Shown in pieces: positions 5,684 to 20,490 of a stretch of 45,614 nt of DNA; the stretch's first letter is position 1, and each line of letters opens with the position of its first letter. The DNA lies in IMG/VR virus record IMGVR_UViG_3300005137_000013, positions 1 to 45,614 of that record; one strand, written 5' to 3'. The translations under genes and the position numbers were made by a program. The notes beneath the pieces were generated by a model. That model made no database searches and was not told the DNA's origin. It was given only the letters and a program-made list of their open reading frames with translations. This stretch comes from a virus. Its lineage: Duplodnaviria > Caudoviricetes.

Positions 5684-5928
5684 AGCGAATTTCCTACGAA
5701 GAATCCGTCAGACTGACGCAGGAAATTCTCAGACAGCCACTTGGAAACTGGACGCACATGATCGACGGAAAGCCTGTCAGAGTTGTTGAACGCTGCATCG
5801 TAGGACGGCATGAATACGAGATCGTCTTTTTCCGCGCAGACGATTACTGCGGGCGTTGGATAGCGGAGCAGTTCGACAAGCGCGCGAAGCCGTATGTGCC
5901 GGAGCCGGAGCAAATGACGTTATGGTGA
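5680..5928 (+). CDS. Hypothetical phage protein
   Basis: GAGGAG RBS; ends EQMTLW, resembling a QLxLF-type clamp-binding tail. Confidence 0.6.
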   Translation: MKRISYEESVRLTQEILRQPLGNWTHMIDGKPVRVVERCIVGRHEYEIVFFRADDYCGRWIAEQFDKRAKPYVPEPEQMTLW

Positions 5929-6874
5929 GGGAGGGAAAAGGGATGGCAACGGTCAACGTCCTTTCCATCAGCGGGGGTAAAGACAGTACAGCTATGTGGC
6001 TGTACGCGTTGGAAACAAAACCGGAAGGTGATATTCTACCGGTTTTCGCAGACACAGGCCACGAACATCCGTTGACCTACGAATACCTGGACTATCTCGA
6101 ATCCAAGCTGGGGCCGATCCGGCGTATTAAAACAGACTTCTCGGAAGAAATCGCAAGAAAACGCGAATATGTACAAACGCATTGGCGCGAAGAAGGCGTA
6201 TCGGAAGAAATAATTCAACAAGCACTCGAAGTTTTGCAACCGACCGGGATTCCGTTTCTTGACTTGTGCTTATGGAAAGGGCGCTTCCCTTCAACGAAAG
6301 CACGTTTCTGCACTCAGTTTCTGAAAAGGGAGCCGGTATTCAACCAAATCTATTTGCCGCTGATGGATGAAGGAAAGCAGGTGGTTAGCTGGCAAGGCGT
6401 GAGAGCGCAGGAGAGTGCGGCCAGAGCAAAACTTCCGGAACGAGAAGAAACGCCAGAAGGATTCGAGATATACAGGCCGTTACTCAAATGGACAGTCGAA
6501 GATGTGTTCAACATCCACAAACGGCACGGAATTGAGCCGAATCCGTTGTATTTGCAAGGCATGTCCCGCGTTGGATGTATGCCCTGCATCAACTGCCAGA
6601 AATCCGAACTCTATGAGATCGCCAGAAGGTATCCGGAGGAAATTGAGCGCGTGGCGAAATGGGAAAAGATCGTCAGCAAGGCATCAAAACGAGCATCGGC
6701 AACATTTTTCTGTTCAACGAATGACTGGGGAGAAAACATTTACGAGGCCGTCGAGTGGTCGAAAACCGGATATGGGGGAAAGCAGTACGATCTTTTCAAA
6801 GTTGCTGGATTTGAGGATGTACCGGTATGTTCAAGCGTTTATGGACTGTGTGAATGAGGGAGGGAAAAGGGATG
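5926..6874 (+). repeat. Perfect 20-bp direct repeat flanking the PAPS-reductase gene
   Basis: TGAGGGAGGGAAAAGGGATG at 5926-5945 and 6855-6874. Confidence 0.9.
5943..6857 (+). CDS. Phosphoadenosine phosphosulfate (PAPS) reductase family protein
   Basis: SISGGKDS PP-loop, FADTGHE, RFCTQFLK, QGVRAQESAAR, PNPLY..GMSRVGCMPC. Confidence 0.9.
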   Translation: MATVNVLSISGGKDSTAMWLYALETKPEGDILPVFADTGHEHPLTYEYLDYLESKLGPIRRIKTDFSEEIARKREYVQTHWREEGVSEEIIQQALEVLQPTGIPFLDLCLWKGRFPSTKARFCTQFLKREPVFNQIYLPLMDEGKQVVSWQGVRAQESAARAKLPEREETPEGFEIYRPLLKWTVEDVFNIHKRHGIEPNPLYLQGMSRVGCMPCINCQKSELYEIARRYPEEIERVAKWEKIVSKASKRASATFFCSTNDWGENIYEAVEWSKTGYGGKQYDLFKVAGFEDVPVCSSVYGLCE

Positions 6875-13031: not shown

Positions 13032-13346
13032 ATGCCCCCTCTCAATGAACAACCGGCTAGACCCGTGCCGAAGCCGAAGCATAAGCGCAGAGTACGGAAA
13101 CGCGGCAACGCCAGCAAATACAGCACCGCCGTTAGATTAACCATCATCGAACGAGACAAAGGTTTCTGCGTCCGCTGCGGGGCGTTATACGACGATATTC
13201 ACCACATCATCTTTCGTTCTGCCGGCGGCAAAGGAACGGTCGATAACGGCGTTTGCGTGTGTCGGAAATGTCACGCATGGGCGCATAGTTGCCGAGAAGG
13301 ACGAGAATGGTTTGAACGATATAGAGAGGAGCGATTATTGACATGA
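13032..13346 (+). CDS. HNH endonuclease
   Basis: RDKGFCVRCG...IHHIIFRSAGG...NGVCVCRKCHAWAH. Confidence 0.88.
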   Translation: MPPLNEQPARPVPKPKHKRRVRKRGNASKYSTAVRLTIIERDKGFCVRCGALYDDIHHIIFRSAGGKGTVDNGVCVCRKCHAWAHSCREGREWFERYREERLLT

Positions 13347-15056: not shown

Positions 15057-15858
15057 TGAACATGTGTGCCCGCATTGCCATCAGGTGGTGCCCAAAATGA
15101 CCATTCACGTGTTCGGAATGGAAAAGACCGTTCAACCGCGTTGCCGGTGCGAAGTGTTGGAGTTTGAAAGGGGCGTTACCGAAGCGGTCGAGCGGAAAGA
15201 AAAAAACGAGATCGAGCGCAAGTTTTCGCTGGACAACCTGGGCGAACGGTTTCAAAATTGCCGGTTTGACACGTTTATCCTCAAAGAGGGTAATCGCAAA
15301 GCGGCGGAAATGGCTCGTGGGTATGCCCTTAATTTTGGGGATTATGGCGGCGAATCACTCCTGATATGGGGAAAGCCCGGCAACGGGAAAAGTCATCTAG
15401 CCGCGGCGGTCTGTCATGAAATCCGGGCAAAAGGCTTTATTCCCGTGTTCCAAACGATGCCGGAACTGCTTGAGCGCATCCGAAACACCTTCAACAAGAA
15501 AAGCCATGAGAGCGAGCGCGAGATCATGGACGCGCTGCGGGAATGCGATTTGCTTGTCTTGGATGATATTGGCGCAGAAAAAGTCACCGATTGGGTGCTG
15601 GATGTGCTGTTTCGGATCATCGACGGGCGATACCGGAACAAGAAACCGACCATGTTCACGACGAACTTTTCACCGACCGACCTTTTATACCGGTTTATGC
15701 CGGAGCGCCCGACAGCAGAACAAGAAATCTCGGCCAAACGCATCCATGACCGAATACTGGAAGTGTCGATCATCGTCGAGAACAAAGCGCCGAGTCACCG
15801 TCTGGAAACCGCTGCGGCGCGGGCGAAAGAAGCTGATATAAGGAGGATGTGGGCGTGA
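14995..15858 (+). CDS. DnaC/IstB-like helicase loader ATPase
   Basis: CPHC/CRC Zn motif, Walker A GKPGNGKS, LLVLDDIGAE, MFTTN; AAGGAGG RBS before TTG. Confidence 0.92.
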   Translation: MQDLGQALQETILTITASLSDEHVCPHCHQVVPKMTIHVFGMEKTVQPRCRCEVLEFERGVTEAVERKEKNEIERKFSLDNLGERFQNCRFDTFILKEGNRKAAEMARGYALNFGDYGGESLLIWGKPGNGKSHLAAAVCHEIRAKGFIPVFQTMPELLERIRNTFNKKSHESEREIMDALRECDLLVLDDIGAEKVTDWVLDVLFRIIDGRYRNKKPTMFTTNFSPTDLLYRFMPERPTAEQEISAKRIHDRILEVSIIVENKAPSHRLETAAARAKEADIRRMWA

Positions 15859-15860
15859 GC

Positions 15861-16043
15861 ATGGGTAAAGTACGAACCGCGTATGTCGACCAGCTTCCCG
15901 AAGATGTGCGGACATACATCGTCAATCACTATAAACTATACAGGCGCAATCGAAGAAAACTCATGCGGAAAGTCGGCATCACAAACAAATTCGTGTTCAA
16001 CCAGATTTTGATCGAGTTAGATTTACCGAGGGGTGAAATGTGA
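15861..16043 (+). CDS. Hypothetical basic protein
   Basis: Coupled ORF MGKVRTAYVDQLP... Confidence 0.55.
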   Translation: MGKVRTAYVDQLPEDVRTYIVNHYKLYRRNRRKLMRKVGITNKFVFNQILIELDLPRGEM

Positions 16044-16089
16044 TGAGGAATATCGTGTTTCGCGAAATAGTCAAAAGAGGCGACCCGAC

Positions 16090-16326
16090 ATGAAACGCCG
16101 CGCACGCCGACTCAAACGAACGTTCACGGAACTGGATCATACACAGTGGCGCAAAGTGATGGACGAATACCGCTCTATGCGTCCGTATCGCGAAATTGAC
16201 TTGACCGAAGCGCTGGCGCGTGAGCAAGCGGAACGGGAATCATGTCGAACGCGCGTATATTGGGAGCGCACGTACCGGATCGAGGATTTGCCGCAGGAGG
16301 ATAAAGAGAGGTTGGGGCTAGGGTGA
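16090..16326 (+). CDS. Hypothetical phage protein
   Basis: ORF ending GTGA, coupled to the MTase start; start codon uncertain. Confidence 0.5.
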   Translation: MKRRARRLKRTFTELDHTQWRKVMDEYRSMRPYREIDLTEALAREQAERESCRTRVYWERTYRIEDLPQEDKERLGLG

Positions 16327-17315
16327 AGGCGTTAAGTCTGTTCAGCGGCATCGGTGGTATTGACTTGGCGTGTGAATGGGCCGGCATACAGACTGTAGCT
16401 TTCTGCGAAATCGAGCCGTTTTGTCAAAAGGTACTTCAAAAACATTGGCCACACATTCCAGTCTTTGACGACATCTGCAAATTAACCAAAGCCGAACTGG
16501 CAGCGAAAGGAGTGATCGACGATGTTCCCAACGGAAGTAGAACAATTGACATTATTTCCGGCGGGTACCCTTGACCATGCCAGCCTTTTAGTTACGCCGG
16601 GAAGCGACGAGGCGCGGAAGATGACCGCCACCTCTGGCCGGAAGTTAAGCGAATACTTGAGGAGATCAGACCCCGTTGGTTTGTTGGCGAGAATGTTGCT
16701 GGACACGTCACTTTGGGGCTCGACGACGTCCTTGCTGACCTGGAAAGCATCGGCTACACCGCGCAGGCGTTTGTTATTCCGGCTTGTGCCGTCGGTGCCC
16801 CGCACAGACGAGATCGAGTCTTTGTTGTGGCGCACGCCTCATGCGAATTGCTACACGGGAGCCAGGGAGTATGGAGAAGGCTGGATGAACATTCAGACAG
16901 CGGTGAAGATGTGGCCGACTCCACGATCGAGCGATGGAGAACACGGAGGACCGAATCAACGGGACAGCAGGGGGAACTATGCACTTCCAGGTGCGGTTCA
17001 TCATTCTCAAAGCGAACTAGCGGGCCAACTCAATCCGGAATGGGTGGAAGTGCTCATGAACTTTCCGCCGGGTTGGACGGAGGTATGAACCCGCTGGACG
17101 CACTGGCGGACTTCATCGCTTCTTATCCGCAACCGGCGCTGTTGGGACAACCGCAATACGATTGGGAACCGCCGCGGGTGGCAATCGGCGTAAAGAATCG
17201 AGTAGCGCGGCTGAAAGCGCTTGGAAATGCAGTTGATCCGTTGCAGATATTCCCGATCATGTATGCGATCAAGACCATAGATGACTTGTTGAATTGCGAG
17301 AAGGTGACGGCATGA
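16323..17315 (+). CDS. C5 cytosine DNA methyltransferase alpha chain (motifs I-VIII and X), with an in-frame TGA at 16572-16574
   Basis: SLFSGIGG (I), GGYP*PCQPFS (IV), ENV (VI), PHRRDRVF (VIII), LKALGNAV (X), all in one frame with a single internal stop. Confidence 0.85.
16522..17088 (+). CDS. Nested +1-frame MTase beta chain (carries motif IX)
   Basis: AAAGGAG RBS 9 nt before ATG; 188 codons open entirely inside the alpha gene; WPTP repeats; ends LNPEWVEVLMNFPPGWT (motif IX-like). Confidence 0.8.
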   Translation: MFPTEVEQLTLFPAGTLDHASLLVTPGSDEARKMTATSGRKLSEYLRRSDPVGLLARMLLDTSLWGSTTSLLTWKASATPRRRLLFRLVPSVPRTDEIESLLWRTPHANCYTGAREYGEGWMNIQTAVKMWPTPRSSDGEHGGPNQRDSRGNYALPGAVHHSQSELAGQLNPEWVEVLMNFPPGWTEV

Positions 17316-17641
17316 CCAAATACCGAGCCAGGAAAACCGTCGTGGACGGCATACGCTTCGACAGCAAAGCCGAAGCCATGTACTATCTCTATCTCAAAAG
17401 CGAGAAGCAGCAGGGGCGTATCAAAGAGATCGAGTTGCAACCGGAATTTGTGATCATCGACGAGTACGAGATCAACGGACGAAAGCAACGGGCTACGAAG
17501 TATGTCGCGGATTTCCGTGTGACGTATGCGGACGGACGGGTGGAGGTGATCGACGTAAAGGGCGTGAAAACGCCGGTGTACAAGCTGAAAAAGCGATTGG
17601 TGGAAAGTCGGTACGGAATCGAGATAAAGGAGATTAGTTAG
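17312..17641 (+). CDS. DUF1064 family PD-(D/E)xK nuclease-like protein
   Basis: KYRARKTVVDGIRFDSKAEA...LQPEF...YVADF...VIDVKG. Confidence 0.9.
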   Translation: MTKYRARKTVVDGIRFDSKAEAMYYLYLKSEKQQGRIKEIELQPEFVIIDEYEINGRKQRATKYVADFRVTYADGRVEVIDVKGVKTPVYKLKKRLVESRYGIEIKEIS

Positions 17642-17652
17642 GAGGATTGACC

Positions 17653-17838
17653 ATGATTAAACGATATGAACGTGTCGGCAAGGATTTTGTCGCAGTCAAT
17701 GAACACGAACGTGTGGTGGGCGTGATTCGTTCGGCACCTTTTGAACTGATCGATACGAAAAAGAAAATCAAACCGTTGCCGAATCTCCCGCCGTCGCTCA
17801 TGTTCGAGAACTATGACGGGCCGGATGGGGCGGCGTAA
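17653..17838 (+). CDS. Hypothetical protein
   Basis: AGGAGG RBS. Confidence 0.55.
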   Translation: MIKRYERVGKDFVAVNEHERVVGVIRSAPFELIDTKKKIKPLPNLPPSLMFENYDGPDGAA

Positions 17839-17972
17839 AACGTCACCAGACGCGCGTAATAGCACCTTAGAGGGCGAAAACACAAAACAGGTGTTATACC
17901 ATTCCCCGGAAACGATGCATCGTAAAATGCGGGGTTATACGCACAAAAAAACCTAACATGGAGGGTATAAAC

Positions 17973-18233
17973 ATGGGTTATTCACGCGATGAAATGGAAA
18001 CCACCTGCAGCTATGATTACCTGACTAAAACTTGGACGGTATACACGACCGTTCCGACACACATCACGAAACTGTCGAAACTGGCAGAGCCGATATGGAA
18101 GGAGGAGGAACCGGACGTACATGGAAACCCTCGCATTATCGCCGGAAAGTGGAAGTTGAGCAGGAGCCAAGTCCGATTTGCCAAGCTGATCGAGCGGCAG
18201 GAAGATGAAGACGATCAGGAAGAAAGTGCCTAA
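17973..18233 (+). CDS. Hypothetical phage protein
   Basis: GGAGG RBS; YSRDEMETT...WTVYTTVPTHITKL. Confidence 0.65.
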   Translation: MGYSRDEMETTCSYDYLTKTWTVYTTVPTHITKLSKLAEPIWKEEEPDVHGNPRIIAGKWKLSRSQVRFAKLIERQEDEDDQEESA

Positions 18234-18338
18234 TCTTTTATCATACCACGTAAACAGGTGCAAAGACTATCAATATGTGGTATGATATAAGTATTAACTA
18301 TCATGAAACGGAATTTTATAGGATGGGGGTATAAAAGC

Positions 18339-19403
18339 ATGACCTTGAACTTTAACGAAGCGGTTGCGCTGGGACTGCCGGAACTGTACCGGCGCAGGGA
18401 CGAACTCGCGGGCCAAGAGGATTTTGACCGGGGACTTTACAACGTGATCACGAACGCGATTTCTCATTTGGAGGCATTGGAAGGGACGAAGCAGGAGGCG
18501 GAGGAACGGAAGCAATTGACGGAGGAACAGAAACAGAATTTCAGGCTACCGAAAGACTACAACGATCTTTTCGATGATCACCGCGCAAACGATGAAATCC
18601 TGCGCCTTGTACAACAAACGATCGATCAGGTGTCCGAGTATTACGAAGGCATTCTCGTTGAAAAAGATCAGGAGAACGTGCAAGCAATTCGCGATCTGCA
18701 CGCGGGATATGAGGAGCAAATTTCACAGTTGCAGCGGCAGAACAAAGAGTTGCAGGCGATCGTGAGCGGTCAGAAAACGGAACTCAAAATTGCGAGCGAG
18801 ACGTATGAAAAGCTGTACCAGGAATACAATGAACTGAAATACGATCGTGAAGTCCTACTGCAACAGGTGGAATCGGCACGATCCGAACTTTCCGAGGCTC
18901 GCCGCGAACGCGATGACGCCGTACAAAAACGCGATGCGGCGATGCGCGAAGTGTCCGCACTCAAGGCACAGATTGACGAATTAGAGCAGCAATTGTCGGC
19001 GTACCAGAAGCCGAAGAAGACGAATTTCAGTTTGAACTTGTCGAGCGGCATTTCGGACGAACCGCGCATCAAGTCGCGCTTGGAAATCGCGATGGAACGT
19101 GCTGGAATCCAACTCCCCGCATTCAATACGTCGAATTATCGGGGTGATCAGCCGTCCGGCGAATCGTTTCGTGAAGAAAACGTGGAATCTGCTCAGCCTG
19201 CCGATGAAGTACGTAATGAGGCTGGGCAGGAGGTAGGCTTTCGTGTTCCCGACAATCAAGCATCTGCCGGGGTATCTGAGGAAACAGCGGGAAATGATCG
19301 AGGCTTGGGATTTGAGGCATGGGCGAAGGCGGAAATTGAGGCGTTGAAACGCAGGGTGGATCATCTGTACCGGATTTCCGGGCACAGTGAACCGGCAGCA
19401 TAG
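18339..19403 (+). CDS. Long coiled-coil protein of unknown function
   Basis: Heptad-rich central region, disordered acidic tail; AT-rich promoter-like sequence upstream. Confidence 0.7.
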   Translation: MTLNFNEAVALGLPELYRRRDELAGQEDFDRGLYNVITNAISHLEALEGTKQEAEERKQLTEEQKQNFRLPKDYNDLFDDHRANDEILRLVQQTIDQVSEYYEGILVEKDQENVQAIRDLHAGYEEQISQLQRQNKELQAIVSGQKTELKIASETYEKLYQEYNELKYDREVLLQQVESARSELSEARRERDDAVQKRDAAMREVSALKAQIDELEQQLSAYQKPKKTNFSLNLSSGISDEPRIKSRLEIAMERAGIQLPAFNTSNYRGDQPSGESFREENVESAQPADEVRNEAGQEVGFRVPDNQASAGVSEETAGNDRGLGFEAWAKAEIEALKRRVDHLYRISGHSEPAA

Positions 19404-19413
19404 GAGGGATCGC

Positions 19414-19824
19414 ATGAACAAAGCGATGGTTGTGGATCTGCTCAAAAATTTCCGGTGCTACGAATACGCGGCGATGAATTGCGGGCCGGCGGACGGTGCG
19501 ATGCCGTTGGTGATCTCCGAGCGAAAACGGAACCTGAACATGTGGGACAGGAGCCGGTATAACCGGATCGTGATTTTCATCCGCGGTGCCGTGGATCATT
19601 GTTTGAGTGATGATCAGCGAAAAATCATCACGCGTCGGTACTTAGACCGAAACCCGCAGTCGTTCAGTGAGATTGCCGTCGATATGTGTCGGGATCGCAA
19701 AACAGTATCCCGTTTGCACAATGACGCGATCAACCGGCTGAGCATTGCGCTGGAACCGCTGAGCGAGGATGAGACGGAGATCACGACGTTCCATCACATG
19801 TGGCAAGAAAAAATCCCCTCATGA
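19414..19824 (+). CDS. ArpU/RinA-like transcriptional regulator (sigma70 region 4-like HTH)
   Basis: LSDDQRKIITRRYL...SFSEIAVDMCRDRKTVSRLHNDAINRL. Confidence 0.8.
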   Translation: MNKAMVVDLLKNFRCYEYAAMNCGPADGAMPLVISERKRNLNMWDRSRYNRIVIFIRGAVDHCLSDDQRKIITRRYLDRNPQSFSEIAVDMCRDRKTVSRLHNDAINRLSIALEPLSEDETEITTFHHMWQEKIPS

Positions 19825-19841
19825 TGAGGGGGTTTTCTTTT
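19805..19841. terminator. Bidirectional intrinsic terminator containing both convergent stop codons
   Basis: AAGAAAAAAT-CCCCTCA-TGA-TGAGGGG-GTTTTCTTT. Confidence 0.75.
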
Positions 19842-20490
19842 CTTCCAGCTTGTCCAAATACGGCAGATGATATTTTTCCTCGGCGCGTTTTCTGGCTGCA
19901 GCAGCTTGCTCTATCGTTGGAAAAGTGCCAAGGTAGTAATTTTTTCCTTTAAGACAAATATAGGCAACATACGCATAACCCGATTTTCTTCGAACTCGCG
20001 AAACTCCTTTAACTCCAGAAGTATTGTTTTTTTGTAGTTTTTTTGTCAATGACGGAACAAATACACCCTCAATACGGAGATTCATTTCGTTGTATTCTTG
20101 TAATTCATATCCGCTGTCTTTCAATAAGCATCCACATGATTTTATAGCACCTTCTTTTAAGTGAACACCGTCGGCAATAGTTGTATTTCCGCATTCGCAT
20201 TGACAAACCCAAAAAACGTGACGGGATTTATAGGGTTTCGTCTCTGATTGTTTCACAACGGTTAATCTGCCAAAAACTTTTCCGGTTAAGTCGTCGGTGT
20301 TTGCTGCAAAACTTTTTTCTCGTTGATAGCATCCACAAGATTTTGTGTGACCAACACGCAAATTACTCATTGCGACAACGCGTTCGTTGCCGCAATCGCA
20401 TCGACACAACCATCGACGCGTATATCCTTTTCGCTCGACTTCTTTGATCACAACAAGACGGCCATAACGTTGACCTGTCAAGTCGATCAT
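19819..20490 (-). CDS. AP2-domain protein of the phage HNH/AP2 homing-endonuclease-associated family
   Basis: Two DLTG.x.GRL.V...W.C.C.CG...SCGC repeats plus NTSGVKGV...YLGTFPTIEQAAAARKRAE; lower GC. Confidence 0.85.
   Translation of the reverse strand: MIDLTGQRYGRLVVIKEVERKGYTRRWLCRCDCGNERVVAMSNLRVGHTKSCGCYQREKSFAANTDDLTGKVFGRLTVVKQSETKPYKSRHVFWVCQCECGNTTIADGVHLKEGAIKSCGCLLKDSGYELQEYNEMNLRIEGVFVPSLTKKLQKNNTSGVKGVSRVRRKSGYAYVAYICLKGKNYYLGTFPTIEQAAAARKRAEEKYHLPYLDKLEEKKTPSS

Follow-up and report, generated by a model that had tools for sequence, protein, structure and literature searches.

The window, that is, the whole stretch of 45,614 nucleotides that was analysed, has the gene content of a temperate tailed phage: serine integrase, antirepressor, RecE/RecT, replication initiator and loader, terminase, portal and head genes. 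In its replication block, 5' of a resolvase-like gene, lies a cytosine-C5 methyltransferase (MTase) locus with two overlapping reading frames, hereafter alpha and beta (Table 1). The alpha frame holds the C5 (PF00145) motifs I (FxGxG), IV (PC), VI (ENV), VIII (RxR) and X, and is broken by an in-frame TGA (16572-16574). It is read as GGYP*PCQPFS, with the catalytic PC intact only after the stop. The piece of alpha before the stop matches the Pfam family DNA_methylase (E 2e-11, profile 1-70) as well as PHROG 363, and the piece after it matches the same Pfam family (E 3e-23, profile 70-163) and PHROG 363 (profile 124-323), the two Pfam stretches being adjacent in the profile. Beta matches PHROG 1008 (E 1e-31) and no Pfam family. 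A promoter and terminator search over 15800-18400 yielded nothing above chance. In named genomes, the insert-bearing close copies of this locus are found in Paenibacillus species (L124, L128). In contigs of two other runs, 16317/16319 is joined to 17313, that is, there are close relatives without the whole methylase cassette, which is an accessory module with near-precise ends.

Table 1. Features of the methyltransferase locus (window coordinates)
Feature	Position	Strand	Remarks
Alpha frame, whole	16323..17315	+	Contains the beta ORF in the +1 frame
Alpha part 1: C5 motifs I-III and GGYP, last codon the putative take-off Pro CCT (16569-16571)	16323..16571	+	
Shine-Dalgarno AAAGGAG of beta, within the alpha coding sequence	16506..16512	+	9 nt before the ATG
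Nested beta gene, ATG start, 188 aa, ends LNPEWVEVLMNFPPGWTEV	16522..17088	+	+1 frame
Predicted RNA hairpin, 3' end at the putative take-off codon	16524..16568	+	Starts at the G of the beta AUG
QLTLF in beta, residues 8-12, candidate sliding-clamp-binding motif	16543..16557	+	
CCT-TGA-CCA-TGC: putative take-off Pro, stop, putative landing Pro, catalytic Cys	16569..16580	+	6-nt insert relative to most relatives
Alpha part 2: PCQ (IV), ENV (VI), HRRDR (VIII), poorly conserved linker, motif X near 17196-17280	16575..17315	+	
Two W-x-T-P modules in beta, candidate target-recognition modules	16828..17028	+	HHalign to the single-chain variable region
Motif IX equivalent LNPEWVEVLMNFPPGW in beta	17029..17076	+	Family identity and HHalign register

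The original prediction for this locus was that a 188-codon ORF with its own Shine-Dalgarno (SD) sequence lies in the +1 frame within the MTase gene; its span (16522-17088), the AAAGGAG and the LNPEWVEVLMNFPPGWT end are all present, and the TGA of alpha lies 50 nt after the beta ATG, as had been claimed. A query with beta retrieved 1374 related proteins and 352 related viral stretches, the best 80 of which were retained. Among these best 80 of 352, both frames are open in 80/80 loci, beta is nested in 77/77 of those with both ends present, and alpha is uninterrupted at motif IV in all 80; regarding a possible interruption of beta in close homologues, the beta motif is found in an open +1 frame in 79 of the 80, the remaining one being too short. 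Since these loci had been picked by beta, a second sample of 120 loci was picked by alpha motif IV alone. It comprises 117 methylases, 72 of them long enough to be judged, and in the latter the beta motif lies in an open +1 frame in 59, lies in the alpha frame in 2, is absent from 9 and is broken in 2. Upon random synonymous recoding of the window alpha, the +1 frame stays open over the whole overlap in 146 of 20000 trials and, up to motif VIII only, in 281 of 20000, while recoding across 50 relatives leaves it open in 3.2% of cases on average. As the +1 frame so rarely survives synonymous recoding, yet is open in 80/80 relatives, its openness is more than chance. At 4-fold degenerate alpha codons of 50 non-redundant relatives, the third-position pair difference is 0.70 outside the overlap (12 columns) versus 0.24 inside it (15 columns). 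Past motif VIII, the constraint shifts to beta, the terminal motif (IX) of which shows 76% pairwise identity versus 16% for the alpha linker. A +1-frame start with an SD match of at least 4 nt can be found in 91 of 139 two-chain loci. Phage records matching beta number 71, and in RefSeq NC_041909 the phage Shelly homologue, gp56, is already annotated as 'g55 internal gene'. Nested beta is almost certainly a real gene, and its expression and its binding to alpha are predicted.

The motif partition also turned out as proposed, the main frame lacking motif IX but keeping motif X: in alpha, motifs I-VIII can be recognised, as can X (ALGNAV), and nothing there resembles motif IX. The alpha/beta architecture likened to that of M.EcoHK31I holds as regards layout, with dual coding under selection. 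Judging from the sequences, the two overlapping conserved genes very probably encode a single orphan cytosine-C5 methyltransferase, one chain each, the nested two-frame layout itself being already known (M.EcoHK31I; RefSeq phage record). At the other end of the overlap (17078-17088), GGAGGT is followed by ATGA, where the beta stop overlaps an in-frame alpha ATG (17084), a possible start of a separate motif-X peptide. This start was treated as a by-product of the overlap, since any TGA in the +1 frame yields NTG in alpha.

In single-chain relatives, motifs I-VIII, W-x-T-P modules, LNP..M.FP and motif X are found in one frame, in an order kept in 72 of 120. Beta residues 96-188 align to the variable region and IX segment of these enzymes (HHalign 99.7%, E 9e-26), and the terminal motif of beta aligns, gapless and in register, with the classical motif IX of five Pfam-type control enzymes (HHalign 78.6%, E 1.7e-5); the motif IX equivalent sits in the expected place in single-chain enzymes. 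In the AlphaFold model of the single-chain P0173, motif IX forms a helix with high confidence (pLDDT about 90), the modules being left unmodelled (pLDDT<50), and Foldseek matches this model to HaeIII and HhaI over the catalytic core only. Beta alone is modelled with low confidence (pLDDT 61, pTM 0.26), and Foldseek found no match for it in the PDB. Nor did a profile search of the PDB with beta, the W-x-T-P modules having no solved homologue, and a 23-residue motif IX profile alone retrieved no methyltransferase from the PDB or Pfam; the neighbours of beta in the Atlas are only unnamed clusters. The assignment of motif IX to beta is made with moderate confidence. Each beta harbors 0-5 W-x-T-P modules with a median length of 39 aa. 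In solved enzymes, according to the available text of PMC3404938, the small domain that reads the DNA is made up of the variable region together with motif IX, and beta can on this ground be regarded as the likely recognition chain. As the W-x-T-P region is unmodelled in the single-chain relative too, it is the position of the modules that points to a role in DNA recognition. That the recognition modules are carried on beta seems reasonably likely. As for order, P0177 and P0184 are single chains with a rotated arrangement, namely motifs I-VIII and X, then beta-like modules and motif IX at the C-terminus, and the beta homologue P0159 has an HNH-AP2 domain in frame ahead of its modules.

The sequence QLTLF near the N-terminus of beta had been put forward as a possible sliding-clamp-binding motif. 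The consensus for such binding is QL[SD]LF, and QLTLF is a candidate. This suggestion stands in part: codon choice in the beta frame favours Q and L, but strict QL[STD]LF occurs in only 37 of 139 two-chain loci (53 of 139 in loose form; 0 of 11 single-chain loci), and many betas lack it. Among the alpha codons under Q and L, A-ending ones amount to 54/64 versus a 30% background and T-ending ones to 64/89 versus about 30%, shared ancestry inflating these counts.

The stop in alpha could have been private to the window, none being present in 80/80 loci (the best of 352 beta relatives); this was overturned by pattern scans. Scanning for F/Y-P-stop-P-C-Q-P yielded 38 viral, 12 genome and at least 117 metagenome stretches (about 170 estimated). 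Of 167 pattern loci, duplicates and the window's own contig included, 149 are methylases by an ENV filter, and the 18 failing it are chance matches (L120, L122, L123, L127, L129) or contig ends; among the long pattern loci, 87 of 96 are two-chain. A control scan for any 6-nt insert between Pro and Cys gave 49 viral matches, i.e., 5 chance matches and 44 methylases, and in 44/44 of the latter the stop comes first. The second codon of the insert is CCN in 18, CTN/TTA in 22 and TCN in 4, all pairable with tRNA-Pro through G-U, so that the putative landing codons are cognate in 18 and near-cognate only in 26/44, the window having CCT/CCA. In 62 non-redundant loci, the stops are TGA (28), TAA (21) and TAG (13), with eight different landing codons. 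The insert is rare, with 44 cases versus about 5100 uninterrupted genes (the latter estimated from 2 of 64 parts), or about 1%. In a scan for gaps of 1-30 nt on a codon subset, methylases show gaps of 6 nt (n=25), 9 nt (n=2) and 4 nt (n=2, identical), and none of 1-3 nt. At the same Pro-Cys site, the 9-nt gaps (L417, L420) have the stop first, CCG or TCA last and a strong hairpin, and L419/L422 have a 4-nt, frame-changing gap with a Pro-like codon directly before Cys.

With regard to the reality of the insert in the window, no difference is seen in the Logan assembly of a run that is possibly the window's own source, and a contig with 95% identity over 231 nt (L118/L292) has an identical CCT-TGA-CCA. 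Given this agreement of the contig and the Logan assembly, of which the latter may share the window's source, an assembly artefact was rejected. Re-initiation after the stop was rejected as well, there being no in-frame start codon between the stop and the Cys codon. Mapping the insert onto a FastTree phylogeny of 208 alphas takes 21 changes, 13 of them forced by strong branches, with uninterrupted genes sampled far more thinly and long-branch warnings; one supported 23-row clade holds all three stops. The alpha-only regions of five groups of loci with the insert (hop loci) give pN/pS values of 0.07-0.28, from pairs that are not independent, and purifying selection on alpha appears to continue in the hop clades. 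The Pro-Cys adjacency is invariant in 47/47 aligned alphas. Motif X was not seen in frame in 10 of 29 non-redundant long hop loci versus 9 of 59 controls, three of the ten lying at or near the end of the fetched DNA. As regards expression, no RNA dataset figured among the listed carriers of the sequence, and from a run labelled metatranscriptomic, a 166-nt contig ends at the hop site without bridging it, which favours neither side. Overall, the comparison of these loci makes a programmed stop-hop quite probable for the family and, to a lesser degree, likely for the window's own copy. In L084, L091, L146 and L173, the stop insert is present though motif IX lies in the alpha frame; the hop and the nested motif IX are separable.

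The sequence preceding the insert is structured. The 51 nt before the Pro codon fold with a mean of -21.4 kcal/mol in 62 hop loci, a set that leaves out loci with an in-frame nuclease domain, versus -8.6 in 146 controls, and a hairpin with z<-3 is found in 47/62 versus 1/146. The stem reaches the last base before the Pro codon in 59/62 loci, the folded segment ending at that base. The wobble base of the last Gly codon is complementary to the 5' arm in 52/52 anchored hop loci (C-G 30, G-C 21, U-A 1) versus 2/11 controls, and RNAalifold, run on 20 chosen loci, predicts a basal stem of 7 pairs, 3 of which vary at both positions. Folding across or 3' of the site is little different from controls, and no take-off (A-site) stem-loop was found there. 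The window hairpin (16524-16568) reaches -13.6 kcal/mol (z -2.1), a stability matched in 6 of 200 shuffles, and contains a U-U mismatch at a position that is G-U in its kin; L094 reaches -14.6 and the three nearest hop relatives -17 to -21 kcal/mol. From these comparisons, the 5' hairpin appears to be under selection in the family and is weak in the window copy. In the window and its nearest hop relatives, the hairpin starts at the G of the beta AUG, the beta start lying elsewhere in other clades. This overlap would give a physical basis to the proposal that beta initiation influences ribosome traffic at the hop site, as a ribosome starting beta would be expected to melt the hairpin. In T4 gene 60, the available text of PMC7026636 describes mRNA refolding behind the ribosome as enforcing forward sliding, and polysomes weaken the 5' stem-loop according to a title cited in bioRxiv 2022.08.31.505936.

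HNH or HNH-like genes lie within 1.2 kb of 28 of 51 non-redundant hop loci, a set that includes loci with an in-frame nuclease domain, versus 2 of 102 controls, in which they may be under-detected as the HNH profiles were seeded from pooled, mostly hop loci; the other 23 of the 51 have none. An unseeded HNH regex gave 9/28 versus 0/58 and 0/44, and the HNH families were confirmed by Pfam and PHROG on four examples. Among the 28, the nuclease is in frame in the N-part of alpha in 15, upstream in 12 and only downstream in 1; in L094, the HNH gene is just upstream of the methylase. In the window, no HNH gene adjoins the methylase. Two HNH-family genes are located about 3 kb on either side of it (13032-13346, + strand; 19819-20490, - strand) and differ from the adjacent type of the hop loci. 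In the nearest hop relative, L152, about 340 nt are inserted at the window-equivalent 17085/17086, with an HNH-like gene that starts at the beta stop. This gene sits inside the alpha linker with the alpha frame still open, and the window corresponds to the empty allele. In L087, L092, L099, L113, L125, L143, L192 and L210, an HTH plus an HNH-like domain lies in frame between alpha motifs III and IV, directly before the hairpin and stop. The bypass insert of T4 is described as protecting against nicking by MobA (bioRxiv 2022.08.31.505936, available portion). By the same model, the insert studied here likely originated as a shield against a homing nuclease of the HNH type that cuts the conserved motif-IV DNA, the target site being a predicted one. 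A hidden HNH reported in a phage methylase (PMC11855218, available text) is a different element.

Taken together, the locus is best explained as a two-chain orphan C5 methyltransferase, the catalytic chain of which is probably completed by a programmed 6-nt stop-hop. Alpha would supply motifs I-VIII and, beyond a filler linker required only to keep its frame open, motif X, and beta, expressed from its own SD and AUG in the +1 frame, would supply the small domain with the variable W-x-T-P modules and motif IX. On reaching motif IV with peptidyl-tRNA-Pro on CCU and the stop in its A site, the ribosome would pause, and the hairpin, as it refolds at its rear edge, would drive the ribosome onward. 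After the tRNA had paired anew, with the CCA six bases downstream, translation would continue from the catalytic Cys codon, so that YPCQP is restored exactly. The insert would shield the motif-IV DNA from an HNH homing nuclease, the window having kept the insert and a weakened hairpin with no adjacent HNH. The methylase may have an anti-restriction role. A broader reading, tentative and with slightly less than even chances, is that of a mobile minimal bypass cassette that spread with HNH nucleases into the catalytic Pro-Cys of phage C5 MTases in several phyla, shielding the gene and leaving the protein unchanged. In the same reading, a single run of 45 nt in the window's clade would code for alpha and beta and also fold into the hairpin at the beta AUG, beta initiation would tune the amount of catalytic subunit, and beta would be a swappable, clamp-tethered module of multiple specificity.

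Other explanations have to be weighed against the programmed hop. The enzyme could be two-chain with the alpha stop simply read through to give YP-X-PCQ, the hairpin merely pausing the ribosome. A C after a stop codon makes a leaky context. The stop is followed by a pyrimidine in 44/44 loci and near-cognate landing codons are common, which would fit readthrough, but a single base change would suffice to replace the stop by a sense codon and none has occurred in the same 44/44. Moreover, a Pro-like codon immediately precedes Cys in the gaps of 9 nt and 4 nt too, which readthrough does not uniformly explain, and the invariance of the Pro-Cys adjacency (47/47 aligned alphas) tells against an extra residue there. 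Readthrough is considered improbable. Even less credit, indeed very little, can be given to the view that the 6-nt insert is a DNA lesion that recurs, or a scar of nuclease repair, and inactivates alpha with no recoding: the patchy distribution, the rarity of about 1%, the nuclease link and the near-palindromic nature of many inserts would be expected of a scar, but the codon rule holds across inserts as diverse as three stops and eight landing codons allow, the covarying hairpin is specific to insert loci, and purifying selection persists in hop clades, including the supported 23-row clade with all three stops.

The family could also be truly two-chain and hop elsewhere, with the window copy decaying and making little or no alpha. 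This would agree with its hairpin of -13.6 kcal/mol versus -17 to -21 in the three nearest hop relatives, with the lack of an adjacent HNH, whereas L094 and L152 have one, and with the methylase cassette being dispensable, as follows from its absence from contigs in two other runs. On the other hand, all catalytic motifs and both frames are intact in the window, pN/pS is 0.13 among five hop loci of the window's clade, and the L094 hairpin is similarly modest (-14.6). Decay of the window copy is therefore rated as a minor possibility, only a little above readthrough. The rival with the best prospects, though still an unlikely one, concerns beta, which could carry motif IX only, or be an accessory or regulatory protein, with target recognition in alpha as published for M.EcoHK31I. 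That published partition (PMC2836561, PMC3404938, available text) and the W-x-T-P modules having no solved homologue speak for a target-recognition domain (TRD) in alpha. The alpha linker, however, shows 16% identity and near-free codon positions, the repeated modules lie in the beta frame, and in single-chain relatives these modules occupy the variable region, all of which is more consistent with recognition through beta.

The closest counterpart in layout is M.EcoHK31I (YGGCCR; PMC2836561, PMC3404938), where, in the available text, beta lies wholly inside alpha in another frame and alpha has motifs I-VIII and X, beta motif IX. The likeness is one of layout and motif partition. Unlike M.EcoHK31I, the methylase here is encoded by a phage as an orphan, no restriction partner being seen close by, and has an alpha stop at motif IV, and while the M.EcoHK31I papers, in the portions available, place the TRD in alpha, the variable region here appears in beta as W-x-T-P modules. 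The small chain of M.AquI also has part of the variable region together with motif IX (PMC3404938, available text) but includes motif X as well, which here stays in alpha, with beta nested. The same family and layout can be found in pairs from Paenibacillus larvae phages, e.g., Shelly gp55/gp56 (NC_041909; PHROG 363, 1008). The Shelly pair is known from annotation, and the available text of PMC6070908 lists both genes without discussing their nesting. Tandem modules in variable number on an orphan phage methylase are also described for the multispecific C5 MTases of Bacillus phages (PMC8936443, PMC12707154, available text), which are, however, single chains. M.BatI, a single short enzyme according to the available text of PMC8936443, was set aside as not relevant.

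As for the hop, T4 gene 60/MobA (bioRxiv 2022.08.31.505936, PMC7026636, bioRxiv 2024.12.09.627546, all as available in part) shares the take-off codon, the stop, the matched landing codon and the location in a catalytic region, as well as the upstream stem-loop and, at 28 of 51 hop loci but not in the window, a linked HNH nuclease, the insert being protective in T4 and presumably so here. The differences are a gap of 6 nt (rarely 9), in frame, versus 50 nt, the use of Pro versus Gly/Asp, the lack of a detectable take-off (A-site) stem-loop and the frequency of near-cognate landing, as far as the available T4 texts go. Stop-hops in E. coli, in which nine nucleotides are likewise read as one amino acid, are synthetic and low-level in the available text of PMC5009743 and PMC10732093. 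The same sources propose a 10-nt bypass in the terminase of Streptomyces phage Hau3, similar in its short gap and proposed 5' stem-loop, different in its hungry UUA codon and frame change. According to the available text of a 2016 review (PMC5009743), no natural in-frame stop-hop was known. A literature search for a stop-hop in a methyltransferase found no report, most subscription papers being outside its reach. While the layout is known, the surprise lies in a putative 6-nt hop that is structured, linked to nucleases and overlaps with the start of beta.

If the proposed hop is true, it would be a natural, widespread and very small bypass element, and the 60-nt cassette with its dozens of natural variants would make the role of the 5' hairpin and the rules of P-site re-pairing testable. 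It would also suggest activity for many of the phage methylases that are now annotated as pseudogenes. The two-chain nested layout, known from one characterised enzyme, would then seem to be the majority form in this phage methylase family, with specificity probably residing on a separate modular chain. Elsewhere in the window (5856-6857), a PAPS-reductase-like gene is possibly another DNA-modification enzyme; in L001, such a gene also follows the methylase.
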